The notes under the pieces: model-generated
What the model was told of the DNA's origin: nothing
The model's input: only the letters and a program-made list of their open reading frames with translations
Databases searched by the model: none
Program-made: the position numbers and the translations under genes
Part shown: positions 4,174 through 40,727 of the stretch, one piece after another
Layout of the letters: every line of letters begins with the position of its first letter
How positions within the stretch are numbered: position 1 is the first letter of the stretch
DNA from: Escherichia phage vB_EcoS-Ro145clw
Length of the DNA: 42,031 nucleotides
Direction: 5' to 3' (one strand)
Sequence record: MG852086.2

Positions 4174-4586
4174 TGGGCTACTTTGAGGACTTAACCAAAG
4201 CGTTTGATGTGCCGTTGGTGGCCTTCGGGACCGCAAACGGCATCAGGGTTGCGCTTGAAAATATCGACGCGCCGACGTCAACCGATACGCCGTATCTGGC
4301 GAGTTACATGTTGCTGGCAGATACGGAACAGGCGGATTTGTTCTTCACCGAGCAACGCTCAGGTGTTTATCAGGTCAACATTAACTACGCGTCGGTGAAA
4401 GGTAGCGCGCCAATCAATAAAATGGCAGACTTACTTAACACGGTGTTTAAAGCAGGTAAGTCATTTTCACGTAACGACATCTGCGCCGAGGTTCAATCAG
4501 TTAGCCTGGGGCCGCTGATTGTAGAAAACGGATGGGCCAAAAGACCATTGTCAATTAACTTTATTGCATTCACCAAGAGGCTGTGA
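4173..4586 (+). CDS. tail terminator/completion protein (putative)
   Basis: 137 aa; start ATG 4173 overlapping upstream stop; SD GAGGG; positional call immediately before major tail gene. Confidence 0.4.
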   Translation: MGYFEDLTKAFDVPLVAFGTANGIRVALENIDAPTSTDTPYLASYMLLADTEQADLFFTEQRSGVYQVNINYASVKGSAPINKMADLLNTVFKAGKSFSRNDICAEVQSVSLGPLIVENGWAKRPLSINFIAFTKRL

Positions 4587-4588
4587 AT

Positions 4589-5755
4589 ATGGCTACAACT
4601 CCTTTTAAGGGCGCGAATACCGCGCAATTCTATGTGGCGGAAGTGACCCCGGGCGTAACACCAAGTAACCCGGTATGGTCGCCGTTGCGTAGCACTGGCG
4701 GCGTTCCTGCCGTAACCCGCGATGCGCTGACTTCCAACGAACTGGACGGCAGCCGTGAAACTACATCCATCCGCACTGGCAATAAGCAGGTAAGCGGGGA
4801 GTATGCCATCGAACTTAGCTCTCGTAGTCAGGATGATTTCCTGGCTGGCGCGATGACTTCTACGTGGCAGGATGGGGTAGAGATTACGGGTGCCGAAATT
4901 ACTGTCGCCCCCGCAGGTAAAACATTCACCCGCGCTGCCGGTAGCTTCATTACTGACGGTGTAGAAGTTGGTGACCTTATTGCGTTCACCGACTTAACCG
5001 GCGACAACGCAAAACCGTTTATCGTGACCGCGGTTTCTGCTCTTGTAGTTACGGGTGCGGGCATTCAGCACACGCTGACAGCAGAGACTGTAACCACCGA
5101 CGCTAAAACTGGCGATAAACTGGAAACCGGTAACGCATGTAAGACGTTCTCCATCCTGACATGGTTCAAAGGACAGTGCGGGAACCCTGACGCGTACATG
5201 TTGACCAAAGGCGTGGAAATCTCCGGTTTCACCATTGAACAGGCCGTAAACGCGATGGTGACAGGCAGCTTCCCGTTCATCGGCCTGAGTCAGGAGATTC
5301 TTACCACGCCGCCGTCTGGCTCTGATTTCTCTCAGGTGACGTTCACGGACGAGCCGTTCTCTTCTGTAGATGTGTCTGTGTTCGACGGTTCTACGCCGTT
5401 GCGTTGCGATACTCTCACTATCACCAACGATAACGGTGCTTCCGCGCAGTTCGAACTCGGCAACAGTAGCGTCGCGTTCGTGGAACGGGGGCGCGCAGCT
5501 AACACCTTTTCCATCTCCGGTAAGCTGTACGACATGACGATGATTCAGAAGTTTATCAACGAGCAGCAGGTAGAGATTAACTCTATTCTGGCGGGGGTAA
5601 ACGGGGCTATGTCTTTCAGTTTGAAACGTGCGGAACTTACGGCGGTTACGCCTGAGATTGGCGGACCTGAGTCAATCACCCAGAGCATAGAAGGACAGTC
5701 CACAGGCAATCAATATCAATCTTCTATTGTAATACAGCGTATTAGCTACGCGTAA
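4589..5755 (+). CDS. major tail (tube) protein (putative)
   Basis: 388 aa from ATG 4589 with SD AAGAGG 8 nt upstream; Thr/Ser/Gly-rich; position between completion proteins and chaperones. Confidence 0.55.
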   Translation: MATTPFKGANTAQFYVAEVTPGVTPSNPVWSPLRSTGGVPAVTRDALTSNELDGSRETTSIRTGNKQVSGEYAIELSSRSQDDFLAGAMTSTWQDGVEITGAEITVAPAGKTFTRAAGSFITDGVEVGDLIAFTDLTGDNAKPFIVTAVSALVVTGAGIQHTLTAETVTTDAKTGDKLETGNACKTFSILTWFKGQCGNPDAYMLTKGVEISGFTIEQAVNAMVTGSFPFIGLSQEILTTPPSGSDFSQVTFTDEPFSSVDVSVFDGSTPLRCDTLTITNDNGASAQFELGNSSVAFVERGRAANTFSISGKLYDMTMIQKFINEQQVEINSILAGVNGAMSFSLKRAELTAVTPEIGGPESITQSIEGQSTGNQYQSSIVIQRISYA

Positions 5756-5759
5756 GTAA

Positions 5760-5779
5760 AAGGCCCCGAAAGGGGCCTT
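5760..5779 (-). terminator. GC hairpin AAGGCCCC GAAA GGGGCCTT, terminator oriented for the minus strand
   Basis: Perfect 8 bp stem; A-run on plus strand just before it gives a U-tract on the minus strand after HNH gene 5781..6275. Confidence 0.5.
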
Positions 5780-5780
5780 A

Positions 5781-6275
5781 CTATTTACCGTGGTTCTCGT
5801 GGAACCCCAAATCTCTTTCAGCAACTCTCCTCGCGGCAACTGCATCTAGTATCGTCTTAAAGCACCCGATATGTGTTTTTACGTTATTGTTGAATATCTG
5901 CGCGTACCACAACCTTTCTTTCGCGTTCCAGTAGACTCCGGTTACTCCTGATTTATTATTACGCTGTTTTGACATATTTTTATGGTTTTCCGCATTGGAC
6001 TTTTTAGCTAAGTTAAGCGGTCTATTGTTTATTCGGTCATGGTCTAGATGGTCTATTTGATCTGACGAGGTTAGCTTATTGTTAGGATTGTTTAAGTCCC
6101 AAGCTATACGGTGCGCCGCATGCCATTTACCCCGGAAAAATATCCTTCTATATCCGTCTCGCTGGACGGTACCTGCTTCCTCTCCAGCCTTAGCCCTCCC
6201 GGACCGGGTTACTCTGTTAAATATCCTTCCTGAAATTAAGTCGTATATGAAAAATTCATTCCAATCCATAATCAT
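5781..6275 (-). CDS. HNH homing endonuclease with AP2-type DNA-binding domain
   Basis: 164 aa; HNH core GKWHAAHRIAWDL...IDHLDHDRINNRPLNL; AP2-like SGVTGVYWNAKERLWYAQI; AT-rich; SD AGGAG. Confidence 0.8.
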   Translation of the reverse strand: MIMDWNEFFIYDLISGRIFNRVTRSGRAKAGEEAGTVQRDGYRRIFFRGKWHAAHRIAWDLNNPNNKLTSSDQIDHLDHDRINNRPLNLAKKSNAENHKNMSKQRNNKSGVTGVYWNAKERLWYAQIFNNNVKTHIGCFKTILDAVAARRVAERDLGFHENHGK

Positions 6276-6288
6276 CTCCTATTGTGAT

Positions 6289-6311
6289 AAGGCCCCGAAA
6301 GGGGCCTTTTT
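6289..6311 (+). terminator. second copy of the identical hairpin AAGGCCCCGAAAGGGGCCTT followed by T5 (plus-oriented terminator)
   Basis: 20/20 identity with 5760..5779; followed by TTTTT on the plus strand. Confidence 0.5.
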
Positions 6312-6312
6312 C

Positions 6313-6543
6313 TTACTCATCAATATTACTCCTGTACTCCCGTAACTTCTCCAGACTCTCAATTGCTTCCGCTAAGTCGGTTCCTGTGTCCTTGTGCCCC
6401 CGCAAGCCCATACACAATAGCTTCTTCAATGCGTGCTGTAACGCCGGGTCGCGGATGTCGAAGGCACGTAGCACGTCGTAAACGTCTACTGTCATAGTGC
6501 TGCCGTGAGTGTTTGTCATTGTGCGGTTGTATTTTGAAGTCAT
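6313..6543 (-). CDS. hypothetical protein (76 aa)
   Basis: SD GGGGAG upstream on the minus strand; preferred over the overlapping 6359..6550 frame. Confidence 0.4.
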   Translation of the reverse strand: MTSKYNRTMTNTHGSTMTVDVYDVLRAFDIRDPALQHALKKLLCMGLRGHKDTGTDLAEAIESLEKLREYRSNIDE

Positions 6544-6556
6544 AAATCAATCTCCC

Positions 6557-7027
6557 CTACTCATGGTTTTCATGAAAACCGTATTTACTCTCGGCGGCTT
6601 TACGCGCGGCAACCGCTACATCAAAATCGTCGTAAAGCCCTAAATGCACTTGTTTGTAGTTAACTTTTATAAACGCGCGCCACTTACCCGCGGCTTTGTG
6701 GAAACTTACACCTGTAGCCCCGGATTTATTTATCTTTCTCATAGTTTTATTTTTACTGTCCCCTGTATTGTCGGTGGCGCGTAGATTTTCTATTCTATTG
6801 TCTAGCCTGTTATGGTTTATGTGGTCTATTTGAGTTTTCCTGTCTAAGTCGCATTTATTATAAAGACACCATGCTATGCGGTGGACATACACTGTTTTAC
6901 CACCCATACCGCAGCACAGATAGCCTCTTACACCAACCGTACCAACCTCAGCACCAGTAGATATCCTGGTAACCTGCCCCGTCTCAGGGCAGTATTTAAA
7001 TTGTTTTGAAACATCAAGATACTTCAT
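6557..7027 (-). CDS. HNH homing endonuclease with AP2-type DNA-binding domain (paralog of 5781..6275)
   Basis: 156 aa; HNH core HRIAWCLYN...IDHINHNRLDNRIENL; AP2-like SGATGVSFHKAAGKWRAFI; shares C-terminal GFHENH with the other HNH. Confidence 0.8.
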   Translation of the reverse strand: MKYLDVSKQFKYCPETGQVTRISTGAEVGTVGVRGYLCCGMGGKTVYVHRIAWCLYNKCDLDRKTQIDHINHNRLDNRIENLRATDNTGDSKNKTMRKINKSGATGVSFHKAAGKWRAFIKVNYKQVHLGLYDDFDVAVAARKAAESKYGFHENHE

Positions 7028-8154
7028 CTTAGCATCTCCGGTGAGATTGAAAGCCTACCTACTTCCCCGAACTCTGAACTATAGGTTATGACATTAGCGG
7101 ACCTCTTAGACATCCACCCGCCGCGAGAAGCATATGCATCTTTCGCCGCGAGAGTGCGATGTTGTTCCACTACCATATTCCTACTTTCTACAATCTTTTG
7201 ATGGTGGAGATGCCCGACATGTGCGTAACTGTACTCGCTTTCGCCAAATGCTTTTCTGAACTTAGCTATCATAATGGGTTCGACCACCTCAAACCGGCAT
7301 TTATGCCCGTGTGTAAAGAACAGTGTCGTTTTACCGTGTTGCACCATCTTGTAAACATCCGGCGACGTATCGACGAACACACGCGGCTCATTGTCGTACA
7401 GCGTACTGAACATCTCAGCCAACCAAATCATTCCGCTTTCGTCGTGGTTCCCTTGCACGATAAGCAAGCGAACATTTTTATGCTTAACCAGCGCCATACC
7501 AACAACACGGCGTACCATACGAATCATGTAGCGGACTAGTTTCTGGTAGCGCGTGTCCGCATCAAGAACATGACCGCTCGCTGGCGTAACGGCATCCAGA
7601 CTATCGAAGTGTGCGAAGTCCCCGAGCAGATTAATGACTCCTGTTCCTGCATCTGGCGCTTTCTGGAATGCCGCATCGAACCATCGGGAGAACAGGTCTT
7701 CAGCAATCTTCATATCCCAGTCGTCGCCGCTCTCGTCGGCCCAGGCCAGCATGCCGAGATGGAAATCAGATACCGTGTAAAGATTGAGTAGTTTGTCGTC
7801 ACGTTTGGCTCGAGTCGCTTTAACAGGCGCAACTGGGGTAATCTCTGACTTCATGCCTTCAACCACGGCTTTCATCAACTCAACCTGACGTTCGGCATCG
7901 GTGTCGGTCTTAACCCATTGCAACTTAGTGTTGCCGAACTCGTCTACCAGTGACGACGTTCCTTTAATCTTGTAGCCGTCTGGCACAAGGTGACTAACAT
8001 CACGACCATGACCTACGCCTTTCTTCGCCAGCTTCGCTTTACGGATACGAATAACGCGGTCTGAGATGCCGTATTTACGGGCAATGTCGATATTCTTCAT
8101 CCCGACGTTCAATTCTTCCTGTAACTGTTCGTCGGTTATTTTCTTCTGGGCCAT
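7024..8154 (-). CDS. N-terminal HTH domain fused to calcineurin-like metallophosphoesterase
   Basis: 376 aa; HTH-like IDIARKYGISDRVIRIRKAKL; MPP motifs SDFHLG, GDFAHFD, QGNHDES, THGH, HVGHLHH in canonical order; SD GAGGAAG. Confidence 0.65.
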   Translation of the reverse strand: MAQKKITDEQLQEELNVGMKNIDIARKYGISDRVIRIRKAKLAKKGVGHGRDVSHLVPDGYKIKGTSSLVDEFGNTKLQWVKTDTDAERQVELMKAVVEGMKSEITPVAPVKATRAKRDDKLLNLYTVSDFHLGMLAWADESGDDWDMKIAEDLFSRWFDAAFQKAPDAGTGVINLLGDFAHFDSLDAVTPASGHVLDADTRYQKLVRYMIRMVRRVVGMALVKHKNVRLLIVQGNHDESGMIWLAEMFSTLYDNEPRVFVDTSPDVYKMVQHGKTTLFFTHGHKCRFEVVEPIMIAKFRKAFGESEYSYAHVGHLHHQKIVESRNMVVEQHRTLAAKDAYASRGGWMSKRSANVITYSSEFGEVGRLSISPEMLR

Positions 8155-8192: not shown

Positions 8193-8384
8193 TCACTTCT
8201 CGTTAACATTCGAGTTGCACGCCCAGATTAAAATAAATACCCACGGCAGCAGAACCCAACCAAGAAACAGGTTAGCCATGAATATCGCCAACTTCGCTTT
8301 ATGGTTACGGAAATATGCAACCAGGAAAGGCGCGAAATAAGCGAGCAGTGCAAACAGAATTAAGGAAACTGGTAAACTTGACAT
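8193..8384 (-). CDS. small membrane protein, superinfection-immunity (Imm)-like family (putative)
   Basis: 63 aa from the second ATG (SD AAGGGG); two hydrophobic segments; YFAPFLVAYFRNHK...NLFLGWVLLPW resembles the Imm-type superinfection immunity family as remembered. Confidence 0.45.
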   Translation of the reverse strand: MSSLPVSLILFALLAYFAPFLVAYFRNHKAKLAIFMANLFLGWVLLPWVFILIWACNSNVNEK

Positions 8385-15529: not shown

Positions 15530-17620
15530 ATGTCAAGCGGATGCGGTGACGTTTTAAGCTTGGCGGATTTACAAACCGCCAAGAAACACCAGATTTTTGA
15601 AGCCGAGGTTATCACCGGTAAATCCGGCGGTGTTGCTACGGGAGCTGATATCGATTACGCGACCAACCCTGTTACCGGCCAGACTCAAAAGACGCTACCC
15701 GCCGTGTTGCGTGACGCTGGTTTTTCACCCGTGTCATGGGACTTCGCCACTGGCGGAACGTTAACAGTTAGTGACCGCGACAAAGTGGTGTACGACCCTG
15801 TAAGTGAAACATGGTACTCATACGCAGGTACACTACCTGTTACAGTCCCCGCTGGTTTTAACCCTGTTGGTAATGCGGACTGGAAGCCGCAGACAGACCC
15901 GGATTTGAGGTCCGATTTAACCGCCCCATCATCGGGTCTTATTGTCGATGCATCCAATATTTTCATCAAAGCTAGTTCTCCTGGTACAAAGGATGTTCCG
16001 TTAAACACATTTGCGGGCCAGATGGTTAGTTTACTTAATTTCCAGGGAGTGGTAGCCGATGGTATAACCGATACACGAGCCGGGGTGCAAGCTGCGATAG
16101 ACGCGTGTGCTCTCGCTGGGGTTACGTTATATATCCCAGACGGTGTGTATGCTTTCGGAAACTTCTTCACCCAACCTTCTAATTCTAAGCTAGTTTTCGG
16201 TGAAAATGCATGGTTTAAACTACTAAATAACACCACCTGGCCTGGGCTTGGCGGTATAGGCCACTTCCACAACACCGGAACTAACTACAATGATTTCCTT
16301 AATACGGACGGTGAAACTATTAAGTATGTAGAAGCTACCAATGTAGTCACTGTAGGAATGAAGCTGGACTGTAACAATATTGAGGGTGAAAACGGCATTT
16401 CATCAGCATGGGGTTCTAATATCCGCCATATCCGCCCTATAGTTAAGAATACAGTACACACAAACACCGCTCTAGGCGGTAGGGCGTTTCAGATAGAAGG
16501 TGAGCTAAACCAAGATATTGTAGTATCAGATGCCACTATTATTGATTGCTCTATTGGGTGCAATAGCCAAGGTTTAGCAGGCAGCACAACCGCCAACACC
16601 CGCGCAGTAACTTACGACGGTATTTTCATGAAAAATGTTGGAGTACCATTTAACATCGATGGGCAGGTATCCAACCCCGAAACCGCAGACGGCAGAGTAC
16701 ATTCAGTAACCGCATACAATGTAACATTGCATAATTGTGGCGGGCCGAAAGCACCATTTGCATCCCAATTAGACGGCGGCATTATTTGCGGGGATCGTGG
16801 GGCTGGTTTAGCAATATACGGTCTTCGTTTGATAAATGAGGATTCTTATGGTGGTATAGGCGCGGTGTTTAGAGGGGTTATTTATAACGTAGCTATACAC
16901 GACGCAGATTTAACAGCCCCTTATATTAGTGCCATTGTCGACCACACTCCGCCGGGGTTTGGCTCACCATCACTGGCAGCATTAGGCGGTTTTGTGTCGA
17001 CAAGGAACGTTAAAGTAAACGCGAATATTGACTACATAGCTAATGGGCCTAACAACAGTATAGGTCCTCACAGCCTTAGATTAGATATAGATATGGCTAA
17101 GGCATCTATTACAACATTGTTTGGTTCGAGCATAGCCTCGGACCCTACCACGCTGGCTATGGTGGAAATATTAGATACCAACACCGGGACAAGTAGTGGG
17201 TATCGGTCCTTTGGGGACATATACCGTGAAGGCAACTCCCCATCTGTCTGTATAAAACGAAAAGATTCCATCGGGCCTGTAGTCCCGGTTGATGCGTCTG
17301 GCGCGAGTCTACCCCTTACCCCTAATGGGGTCCAACGTTTTGTTAGAAATGGAAATACCGTCACAATATCTATCGATGTAACTTACCCAACCACAGCGGA
17401 CTCTCGCCCTGCGACCATATCAGGTATTCCGGTTCCAGGAGTAACAGGAGTAAATTATTGCGGCATTGGTACTGTTCTTAACGGTGCTGCTGCTGGTACT
17501 ATTGCGGTGGTTAAAGGTGGGGAAAATTTTATAAGACTTTTAACTCCAACCGGCTCCAATACCCTAAACAGTGATTTATCTGGTAAAAATATTTCTATAT
17601 CACTTACGTATATGTTCTGA
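15530..17620 (+). CDS. tailspike / receptor-binding depolymerase with pectate-lyase-like beta-helix
   Basis: 696 aa; SD AAGAGGA; GC-rich N-terminal anchor domain; central GVTDTRAGVQAAIDACALAGVTLYIPDGVYAF typical of pectate_lyase_3 beta-helix N-cap; AT-richer C-terminal two thirds. Confidence 0.7.
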   Translation: MSSGCGDVLSLADLQTAKKHQIFEAEVITGKSGGVATGADIDYATNPVTGQTQKTLPAVLRDAGFSPVSWDFATGGTLTVSDRDKVVYDPVSETWYSYAGTLPVTVPAGFNPVGNADWKPQTDPDLRSDLTAPSSGLIVDASNIFIKASSPGTKDVPLNTFAGQMVSLLNFQGVVADGITDTRAGVQAAIDACALAGVTLYIPDGVYAFGNFFTQPSNSKLVFGENAWFKLLNNTTWPGLGGIGHFHNTGTNYNDFLNTDGETIKYVEATNVVTVGMKLDCNNIEGENGISSAWGSNIRHIRPIVKNTVHTNTALGGRAFQIEGELNQDIVVSDATIIDCSIGCNSQGLAGSTTANTRAVTYDGIFMKNVGVPFNIDGQVSNPETADGRVHSVTAYNVTLHNCGGPKAPFASQLDGGIICGDRGAGLAIYGLRLINEDSYGGIGAVFRGVIYNVAIHDADLTAPYISAIVDHTPPGFGSPSLAALGGFVSTRNVKVNANIDYIANGPNNSIGPHSLRLDIDMAKASITTLFGSSIASDPTTLAMVEILDTNTGTSSGYRSFGDIYREGNSPSVCIKRKDSIGPVVPVDASGASLPLTPNGVQRFVRNGNTVTISIDVTYPTTADSRPATISGIPVPGVTGVNYCGIGTVLNGAAAGTIAVVKGGENFIRLLTPTGSNTLNSDLSGKNISISLTYMF

Positions 17621-17625
17621 TAACT

Positions 17626-17646
17626 AAGGCCCCAACGGGGCCTTTT
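17626..17646 (+). terminator. intrinsic terminator after tailspike
   Basis: AAGGCCCC AACG GGGGCCTT followed by TTTT; variant of the 5760/6289 hairpin. Confidence 0.55.
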
Positions 17647-22924: not shown

Positions 22925-22944
22925 CCTTTGTAAAAAGGCCCAAT
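22925..22944 (-). terminator. hairpin AAGGCCC AATAAA GGGCCTT, attenuator/terminator oriented for the minus strand
   Basis: A-run precedes it on the plus strand (U-tract on minus); lies between the SSB-like gene and polymerase gene. Confidence 0.4.
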
Positions 22945-22973
22945 AAAGGGCCTTAATTAAACTGATTCAAGTA

Positions 22974-40423: not shown

Positions 40424-40450
40424 AAGGCCCCATTATGGGGCCTTAGTTTT
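40424..40450. terminator. bidirectional terminator between convergent genes
   Basis: AAGGCCCC ATTAT GGGGCCTT with T-run on the plus side and A-rich on the other; variant of the recurring hairpin. Confidence 0.55.
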
Positions 40451-40673
40451 AAACTTCCACGTCTATCACCAAATCATCAGGCATGGTTATGACTATTTTA
40501 TCGTTTTCATAGAACGGGCTAAGAGGCTCATTTTCAGGCTGCAAACGTAAAGTTAGCTTTTTATCACCAAAATAATCTATGTAACGAACCCAGTACCACT
40601 CGTCGAATACCTGTACCTTTTCTCCGGGGCGTACATCTCTAGCCTTCTTTTGATTCGTAAATCTAATCGGCAT
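40449..40673 (-). CDS. hypothetical protein (74 aa), minus-strand single-gene island
   Basis: SD AGGAGG upstream; own promoter (site B) and terminator. Confidence 0.45.
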   Translation of the reverse strand: MPIRFTNQKKARDVRPGEKVQVFDEWYWVRYIDYFGDKKLTLRLQPENEPLSPFYENDKIVITMPDDLVIDVEV

Positions 40674-40698
40674 AAATACCTCCTGTTTAAGTTAACTG

Positions 40699-40727
40699 AA
40701 TAGTACCCTACTATATTGGGGTGTGCA
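40699..40727 (-). promoter_or_regulatory. sigma70-like promoter TTGCAC-N17-TACTAT with AGTAG-GGTA-CTATT (site B)
   Basis: Minus strand reads TTGCACACCCCAATATAGTAGGGTACTATTCAG; near-identical to site A. Confidence 0.5.

Follow-up and report, generated by a model that had tools for sequence, protein, structure and literature searches.

Two copies of a conserved terminator hairpin flank an HNH endonuclease gene in an Escherichia phage of the genus Kagunavirus

Introduction

How does a phage genome come to carry the same terminator-like hairpin on both sides of a free-standing endonuclease gene, exactly where two transcription units converge, and what does the pair do to expression of the gene between them? 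The question is raised by Escherichia phage vB_EcoS-Ro145clw (MG852086.2), whose 42,031-nt sequence was analysed as a whole and is called the window here. Over the queried region the window is 100% identical to MH051334 (Ro145c2YLVW; Kagunavirus, Guernseyvirinae), with a rotated start. A preliminary description of this DNA had pointed out the hairpin pair and proposed that it was the footprint of an endonuclease cassette inserted beside a terminator, or a recombination hotspot, and that it would insulate the endonuclease gene. Our literature search found no paper on the two hairpins; the phage is named in a single paper, on tailspikes, and Kagunavirus papers mention homing endonucleases in passing.

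Results

A 20-bp hairpin repeat with one-sided U-tracts

The 20-mer AAGGCCCCGAAAGGGGCCTT is present in two copies in the window, T1 on the left (5760-5779) and T2 on the right (6289-6308), which are identical at 20/20 positions and 529 bp apart from start to start (Table 1). The identical hairpin on both sides of a minus-strand HNH gene, as first described, is thus confirmed. As the adjoining bases differ on both sides (A/T before, A/T after), the identity is exactly 20 bp long. No third copy was detected in the window with up to three mismatches allowed, and 100 dinucleotide shuffles gave a chance expectation of 0 matches. Each copy folds into an 8-bp stem with 6 GC pairs and a 4-nt loop (-14.9 to -15.8 kcal/mol), that is, the stable GC-rich stem with a short loop of an intrinsic terminator. 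An Rfam scan of 5500-6600 gave no match at gathering score, only generic hairpin noise.

The two copies differ in what follows the stem. T1 has its U-tract on the minus strand only (CCUUUUAC), where the AAAA ahead of T1 reads UUUU, and its plus-strand 3' sequence is ACUAUUUACC; T1 is therefore the predicted terminator for the HNH gene and its minus-strand operon. T2 carries a strong U-tract on the plus strand, and its minus-strand 3' sequence, AUCACAAU, has none; we therefore predict that T2 acts as a leaky attenuator in front of the HNH gene. Counting U among the first 8 nt after GGGGCC gave 7/8 on the plus strand after T2 and an interrupted 5/8 after T1 (UUACUAUU), and on the minus strand 6/8 after T1 and 3/8 after T2 (UUAUCACA). 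Under a stricter rule of the terminator scan, T2 on the plus strand was the sole terminator-like call of the pair. What had been said earlier about the U-tracts is correct if upstream and downstream are taken relative to the HNH gene.

Table 1. Position, strand and character of the features around the repeat and of the related hairpins (window coordinates)
Feature	Position	Strand	Remarks
Tail tube gene	4583..5755	+	Pfam Phage_tube_2, E 2.8e-37; also called tail tube in the records of relatives
Tail-tube 3' haplotype linked to HNH1	5684..5759	+	Nearly invariant in the five HNH-positive genomes
T1, left hairpin	5760..5779	.	8-bp palindromic stem and 4-nt loop
HNH1, free-standing HNH endonuclease gene	5781..6275	-	164-aa ORF
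HNH1 leader	6276..6288	-	13 nt, with Shine-Dalgarno AGGAG at 6276-6280
T2, right hairpin	6289..6308	.	Strong plus-strand U-tract UUUUUCUU (TTTTTC)
orf76	6313..6543	-	PHROG 2452; small and conserved, precedes HNH1 in the minus-strand operon
HNH2, second free-standing HNH gene	6557..7027	-	HNH1 paralogue between orf76 and the metallophosphoesterase gene
Metallophosphoesterase gene	7024-8154	-	ORF and Pfam match
Related terminator hairpin	17626..17644	.	AAGGCCCCAACGGGGCCTT; convergent junction after the tailspike gene
Related hairpin	22935..22954	.	AAGGCCCAATAAAGGGCCTT; within the minus-strand replication cluster, U-tract on the minus strand
Related terminator hairpin	40424..40444	.	Another convergent junction

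Including T1 and T2, the window holds five related hairpins. The other three had already been listed as variants of the same stem and all exist, although the one given as 22925..22944 is 10 nt off and lies at 22935-22954. Two of them coincide with mosaic breakpoints: at the 17626 hairpin, homology to relatives begins at query 723-727, equivalent to ~17622 of the window, and to the right of the 40424 hairpin the gene is swapped, with a 74-aa ORF in the window versus a RusA-like gene in relatives.

Genes at the convergent junction

The tail tube gene is the last of its plus-strand late block, and its TAA stop codon (5753-5755) ends 4 nt ahead of T1. From the other side, the stop codon of HNH1 lies 1 nt from T1. 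The true start of HNH1 is probably the second ATG, at 6269, because an AGGAG lies 6 nt upstream, the GenBank entry starts there and orthologues are 162 aa long. HNH1 matches Pfam HNH_3 (E 5e-6; 26.5 bits, cut-off 24.8) and PHROG 99, 'HNH endonuclease' (1.7e-49); a sequence search of the PDB returned no match to any solved structure. Between the window and phage KMB36, HNH1 codons differ by 15 synonymous versus 3 nonsynonymous changes, which indicates purifying selection and a gene kept as a protein.

Upstream of HNH1 in the minus-strand operon, orf76 runs into T2, with its stop codon (6313-6315) in the outer arm and the U-tract. The paralogue HNH2 is 38% identical to HNH1, with the DH...N...N motif visible in the alignment; it has no flanking hairpins and is present in phage 590B and absent in Bas76. 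A donor of HNH1 elsewhere in the window was considered and rejected, the only match being a 40-nt stretch of HNH2.

Empty and occupied sites among relatives

To compare occupied with empty sites, we took a census anchored on the tail-tube protein, which covered ~45 related loci taken from phage records in GenBank and from IMG/VR. HNH1 was found in 5 of these, always at the junction of the tail tube gene and orf76: in the window, KMB36, Kagunavirus 536P11 and two IMG/VR contigs. Each of the five carriers has two hairpins. In contrast, each of 33 HNH1-less sites (590B, Bas76, Snoke and ~30 IMG/VR contigs among them) has one hairpin in the interval from the tail-tube stop codon to the first gene on the minus strand, and orf76 directly adjoins it in 14 of the 33. 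Occupied and empty sites differ by a 509-nt insert plus exactly one 20-nt hairpin. This alignment bears out the earlier proposal of an endonuclease cassette beside a terminator; two hairpins with no gene between them, the arrangement named in advance as speaking against it, did not occur in any of the ~45 loci. In a DNA-level search of GenBank phage records, HNH1 was present in three phages only, and the next protein matches were below 47% identity.

The suspicion of a hotspot was likewise borne out, as the same site holds HNH1, a different plus-strand HNH gene or an ant/Rha gene. The plus-strand HNH gene occupies the slot in fPoEco01 and contig L015, with another hairpin upstream. A minus-strand ant/Rha gene with hairpin copies on both sides fills it in Shelanagig (a Jerseyvirus), JSSK01 and contigs L031 and L088, and in L088 the ant gene is flanked by exact 20-mers. 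An origin of the L031 ant insert from a terminator of the 40424 type, with which it has the flank CCTTAGTTTTAAA in common, was tried and rejected: ant is native to the slot in Jerseyviruses, and ectopic hairpin-to-hairpin transfer is therefore unsupported for L031.

The insert moves with the end of the tail tube gene

If a cassette had integrated through the hairpins, both edges of the shared sequence would be expected there; the left one is not. KMB36 and 536P11 show 3 differences in ~605 nt across 5684-6288, and just outside they are 16-28% divergent (on the left at 5300-5499, on the right from 6309). These edges define a block made up of the last ~85 nt of the tail tube gene, T1, HNH1 and the 13-nt leader, with T2 as its right edge. 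Compared with typical HNH-less relatives, the tail-tube 3' haplotype differs at about 15-20 mostly synonymous positions; by codon, there are 14 synonymous and 2 nonsynonymous differences among 26 codons. The haplotype at 5684..5759 thus moves together with HNH1 and is a candidate region for a homing or recombination site. At the right-hand join no homology was demonstrated, and a microhomology at the join of T2 and HNH1 (CCCCG in an L192-like upstream sequence) was judged too weak to claim.

HNH1 therefore combines an HNH domain, an intergenic site and presence/absence polymorphism, as free-standing HNH homing endonuclease genes do, and it has moved with flanking markers into different backbones, as in co-conversion. 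The transfer of the block would fit homing and also ordinary recombination.

More distant relatives show the HNH gene with a single hairpin. A search of a large protein collection, the sole source of intermediate orthologues, yielded HNH1 orthologues of 162 aa with 64-75% amino acid identity, and at least seven of their contigs were recovered (L192, L194, L195-L201). In all of these the HNH gene is convergent with a tail tube gene whose protein is ~72% identical to that of the window, the exact 20-mer separates this pair, and the HNH start overlaps the stop of the gene upstream, which encodes a YebO-like small protein or the metallophosphoesterase. None of the contigs has a hairpin upstream of the HNH gene. 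This common layout indicates that an HNH gene as last cistron, followed by one shared terminator, is long-standing in the sister lineages, and on these comparisons the two-hairpin state appears peculiar to the HNH1 lineage of E. coli Kagunaviruses. The searches did not turn up the actual donor, with an HNH1 more than 75% identical and one hairpin; the direction of transfer is therefore read from the distribution and the block structure.

The hairpin of empty sites is a predicted bidirectional terminator

At empty sites a longer palindrome is built around the 20-bp core, and the stop codons of both convergent genes fall in its outer arms. The palindrome of Snoke reads TAAGGAAAAGGCCCC-TTTC-GGGGCCTTTTCCTTA, and in Snoke and JSSK01 the stop codons lie within a 15-bp perfect stem. 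Unlike T1 and T2, the hairpins of HNH-less sites have tracts on both sides. Flanked by an A-tract and a U-tract, the empty-site hairpin has the structure of a bidirectional intrinsic terminator, and in the records of Snoke and Shelanagig the single hairpin is annotated as such.

The same 20-mer, letter for letter, is a generic terminator among phages: it occurs in at least 120 IMG/VR stretches, on contigs of 30-68% GC and with unrelated flanks. That two copies are identical therefore says little, taken by itself, about common descent.

The loop of the hairpin flips often. At empty sites the 4-nt loop is GAAA or TTTC, in both orientations, and the rarer loops likewise form reverse-complement pairs (GGAA/TTCC, AAAC/GTTT). 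Among the five HNH1 genomes, the T1 loop is GAAA in 5/5, and the T2 loop is TTTC in 3/5 and GAAA in 2/5. Direct identity at 20/20 positions, as in the window, is thus one of two states that can replace each other, and it does not extend to all HNH1 genomes, since the loops are opposite in three of the five; in genomes with the inverted loop, T1 and T2 are identical at 16/20 positions. We had considered telling the resident copy by the way its loop points and rejected this, as both orientations, along with reverse-complement mutant loops, are found at empty sites. Minute loop inversions at hairpins have been described for chloroplast non-coding DNA. There, as here, a 4-nt loop occurs in both orientations between perfectly palindromic arms, although the type of genome is different. 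The loop inversions bear only on whether the copies are 20/20 or 16/20 identical in a given genome.

Predicted expression of HNH1

The preliminary description had the hairpins insulate the HNH gene from late plus-strand read-through. This is unsupported, as neither copy has a good U-tract facing the gene. From the geometry of the tracts we would instead predict that transcription leaks into the gene from either side and is stopped firmly only where it leaves. The insertion would have split the bidirectional terminator such that each copy retains only its outer U-tract.

No minus-strand promoter-like site was seen in 6276-6560, from orf76 to HNH1, and the interval between T2 and HNH1 is too short for a promoter. 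From this and the mere 13 nt after T2, we infer that HNH1 is promoterless and probably expressed by read-through rather than insulated. A minus-strand promoter-like match (10/12) at 8453-8425 could serve the orf76 operon. Minus-strand transcripts of this operon would partly read through T2, which has no U-tract on that strand, would be translated for HNH1 and would then stop at T1. In the opposite direction, plus-strand late transcripts would meet the weakened T1 first and be halted by the strong T2 at the latest, so that some antisense transcription across HNH1 seems likely.

Discussion

Probable import of T1 next to the recipient's T2

We consider it reasonably probable that T1 and T2 descend from one conserved bidirectional terminator, one copy being imported and the other resident. 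Most likely, judging from the compared genomes, T1 came with HNH1 and T2 is the recipient's own. The history could have run as follows. In the Guernseyvirinae, the terminator lies between the plus-strand tail tube gene and the minus-strand operon that converges on it (metallophosphoesterase ... orf76). The last cistron of that operon in sister lineages is a gene for an HNH endonuclease of the homing type, translationally coupled to the gene upstream and followed by the single hairpin. A segment comprising the end of the tail tube gene, the hairpin and the HNH gene may then have recombined into a subset of E. coli Kagunaviruses, with the left crossover in tail-tube homology and the right join at or within a few nt of the terminator copy that the recipient already had. 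HNH1 would thereby have come to lie between the imported T1 and the resident T2. The slot of the recipient may have been empty or may have held ant between two terminators; weak evidence favours ant. Later, the block would have spread among divergent Kagunavirus backbones by homing or homologous recombination. Where the preliminary description saw a duplication arising from insertion, the block and the single-hairpin orthologues thus point to a probable juxtaposition of donor and recipient terminators.

Other explanations

A sub-variant of this history, in which nothing was duplicated when HNH1 arrived, would have the recipient arranged as tube-T1-ant-T2-orf76, as in Jerseyviruses, with HNH1 replacing ant and bringing along T1 and the end of the tail tube gene. 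T2 would have lost its A8 run only later, which would have removed the minus-strand U-tract and allowed read-through. Ant-bearing Jerseyvirus and Kagunavirus genomes do have both T1 and T2, and the inner flank of T2 matches at 6/8 nt between the HNH1 type (GTTGCGAT followed by AAGG) and the ant type (GTCACGAT followed by A8G(G)CCCC), for which we estimate a chance of ~0.004. However, the likeness spans just 8 nt and the window's own copy matches at 4/8, the inner flank of T1 has no similarity, and most surveyed Kagunaviruses have empty slots. We therefore regard replacement of ant as possible, if somewhat unlikely.

The left boundary of the block weighs against readings in which the hairpin itself is what moves or recombines. 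One of them is a shuffling of the kind known for PeSLs (promoter-early stem-loops) of T4-type phages, where the hairpin is a recombination site and a circular or linear cassette of gene plus one hairpin would integrate into the resident hairpin and excise from it, reversibly and with various cargo, by recombination inside the 20-bp palindrome. The topology is that described for PeSLs, an ORF with two motifs versus a single motif in a relative (PMC2839356). Unrelated cargo, ant/Rha, is bracketed by the hairpin in this slot (L031, L088, JSSK01, Shelanagig), and in L077, an unrelated phage of 33% GC, two exact 20-mer copies flank an ORF. The right boundary of the HNH1 block also lies at the hairpin, and related hairpins coincide with the mosaic breakpoints at 17626 and 40424. 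Yet the left boundary is ~85 nt inside the tail tube gene and not at T1, the homology available is only 20 bp with 8-bp arms and comes with no promoter module, the distant orthologues carry their HNH gene with one hairpin and not as a two-site cassette, and terminators would in any case be expected at gene boundaries. On balance such shuffling seems unlikely to us. A bolder version, which we consider quite unlikely, makes the 20-bp palindrome an active landing or exchange site, through hairpin or cruciform strand exchange with 8-bp arms or because the HNH protein targets the hairpin. It is equally unlikely that, as this version would have it, HNH1, ant/Rha and the ORF of the AT-rich phage are all cargo of such a site and the loop flips a footprint of exchange. 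If true, it would be a minimal, promoter-less analogue of PeSL shuffling across unrelated siphoviruses.

Direct repeats around an insert also recall a target-site duplication, in which staggered cuts around the hairpin or its cruciform are filled in, as with transposons. In the window and KMB36 there is indeed one extra 20-bp copy, and the copies are direct repeats. The insert, however, encodes HNH only and no transposase or integrase, and it has no terminal inverted repeats besides the hairpins themselves; the loops are inverted relative to each other in 3/5 genomes, the transferred block reaches into the tail tube gene, and orthologues have the hairpin without duplication. Taken together, these points make a target-site duplication extremely unlikely. 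Chance convergence, finally, would have the cassette bring a generic terminator that happened to be identical to the resident one, and the spread of the exact 20-mer over at least 120 stretches of widely different GC content and unrelated flanks speaks for it. The 20-mer is nevertheless rare per terminator, and all distant relatives hold it beside the tail tube gene, for which descent is the simpler reading; we think convergence very unlikely.

Import of T1 beside a resident T2 makes the arrangement probably an ordinary consequence of the traffic of homing-endonuclease genes between phages. It offers a natural example of how a selfish endonuclease gene can settle at the junction of convergent units, apparently without destroying termination in either direction, and of terminators marking the seams of phage mosaicism. 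It also puts forward the last ~80 bp of the tail tube gene plus the hairpin as a candidate homing site, and T2 as a candidate attenuator of endonuclease expression. Were the hairpin a recombination site after all, the PeSL idea would extend from T4-like phages to small siphoviruses. This would matter for the engineering of Kagunaviruses as well, because the intergenic slot evidently tolerates cargo.

Comparison with known systems

A close counterpart of HNH1 is mobE of phage T4, a promoterless free-standing HNH gene that is transcribed from upstream through a weak terminator (PMC2790892). Both are small HNH ORFs between conserved genes, present or absent among close relatives (PMC2790892; review PMC2988022), and in both, polymorphisms in the flanks are inherited with the gene (PMC2790892; PMC2988022). 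Transcription from upstream with no promoter of its own and a weak intrinsic terminator that limits the transcript, as reported for mobE (PMC2790892), is also what we predict for HNH1. The terminators differ in origin and position: that of mobE is part of the 5' coding region of the gene itself, and phages lacking mobE do not have it (PMC2790892), whereas T2 precedes the ribosome-binding site of HNH1 and is a copy of the host phage's intergenic terminator. Nicking and homing have been shown for mobE (PMC2790892; PMC2988022) and are putative for HNH1, which belongs to the HNH_3/PHROG 99 group.

PeSLs are mobile regulatory cassettes of T4-type phages (PMC2839356, PMC4122927). In common with the hairpins described here, their stem-loops are repeated at several intergenic sites, where they mark the boundaries of indels (PMC2839356, PMC4122927), and a variable ORF can lie between two copies in one phage while a relative has one copy (PMC2839356). 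Two-copy and one-copy states of this kind occur for both HNH1 and ant. PeSL stem-loops act as terminators or attenuators (PMC2839356, PMC4122927), the same role that the sequence suggests for T1 and T2. PeSLs are, however, motif-conserved composites of ~100 bp with a strong sigma-70 promoter (PMC2839356, PMC4122927); here there is only the 20-bp core of a terminator, no promoter-like site adjoins T1 or T2, which departs from the promoter and stem-loop composition of a PeSL, and the left edge of the HNH1 block is not at a hairpin.

The element itself resembles bidirectional Rho-independent terminators, which have a GC-rich palindromic stem with an A-tract and a U-tract and lie between convergent stop codons. 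What sets the window apart from an ordinary one is that an HNH gene splits the element and each half keeps one tract. Overall, this is a well-resolved new instance of known events and not a new kind of element.

Other genes at the tube/orf76 junction

The junction between the tail-tube gene and orf76, a small minus-strand gene, is occupied in the window by the minus-strand HNH endonuclease gene HNH1 and in other loci by different genes (see table). In fPoEco01 and L015, a plus-strand HNH-like gene has a hairpin of its own ahead of it (GAGAGGGGTCGTGCCCTCTC, then a T-run) and the resident hairpin behind it, and the TAAAACT flank is kept past its stop codon. Four loci carry an ant/Rha (KilAC) gene, bracketed in each by two hairpin copies. 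An A8-A9 run in the upstream copy predicts a strong minus-strand terminator, and the downstream copy in JSSK01 forms a perfect 15-bp stem with both stop codons inside it.

The exact 20-mer that flanks HNH1 also occurs twice, in direct orientation, in L077, an unrelated AT-rich phage (33% GC). One ORF of ∼230 aa, for which no Pfam match was found, lies between these copies. L077 and fPoEco01 share an identical flank, ACGATAAAACT, which in L077 is the left one.

Features at the tube/orf76 junction and at related sites
Feature	Locus and position	Strand	Remarks
Different HNH-like gene	L003 (fPoEco01) 1474-2237; also L015	+	tube/orf76 slot
ant/Rha (KilAC) gene	L031 3106-3922; L067 (Shelanagig); L068 (JSSK01); L088 871-1674	-	tube/orf76 slot
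Two exact direct 20-mer copies	L077 (IMGVR_UViG_3300000553_000395) 7490-7509 and 8250-8269
Loop pair GAAA/TTTC	loci L013-L066		tube/orf76 hairpin
Loop pair GGAA/TTCC	GGAA in L016, TTCC in L026
Loop pair AAAC/GTTT	AAAC in L066, GTTT in L028 and L035
HNH2, second free-standing HNH gene	window 6557-7027	-	between orf76 and metallophosphoesterase gene

Loop variation of the hairpin

We compared the loops of the tube/orf76 hairpin, whose counterparts in the window lie at 5760-5779 and 6289-6308, across loci L013-L066. The 4-nt loops come as reverse-complement pairs between genomes, which suggests that the loop has inverted repeatedly within its perfectly palindromic arms. In L021, L022 and L033, the run of T that follows the hairpin (orthologous to window 6307-6312) is lengthened to T8-T12, and the right copy of L014 carries a stem mutation (AAGACCCC...). 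For the left copy of the window, plus-strand RNA of 5739-5800 is predicted to extend the stem to ∼29 bp, G-U pairs included, at -30.6 kcal/mol; here the tail-tube gene's last bases would pair with the antisense of the HNH1 3' end.

A second HNH gene and breakpoints at related hairpins

HNH2, 38% identical to HNH1, is inserted without any flanking hairpin. Its counterpart in 590B shows 98% identity; Bas76 has no HNH2, and orf76 there overlaps the phosphoesterase gene. An additional HNH gene lies upstream of the decoration-protein gene in fPoEco01. GenBank annotates HNH1 and HNH2 alike only as 'hypothetical protein'; the 42,031-nt window is a rotated, slightly shorter form of the 42,145-nt GenBank record, with window 4583 matching record position 16512.

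Two related terminator stems elsewhere in the window adjoin exchanged sequence. At window 17622-17644, homology with most relatives starts 4 nt ahead of the 17626 hairpin. On the left side of this hairpin the tailspike gene is swapped as a unit, and the breakpoint of the swap falls at the terminator. In the stretch 40445-40700, right after the 40424 hairpin and AGTTTTA, lies a 74-aa minus-strand ORF, replaced in fPoEco01 and VIPECOTPH05A by a 173-aa RusA-like gene; past this swap, common sequence restarts at CTCCTGTTTAAGTTAAC.
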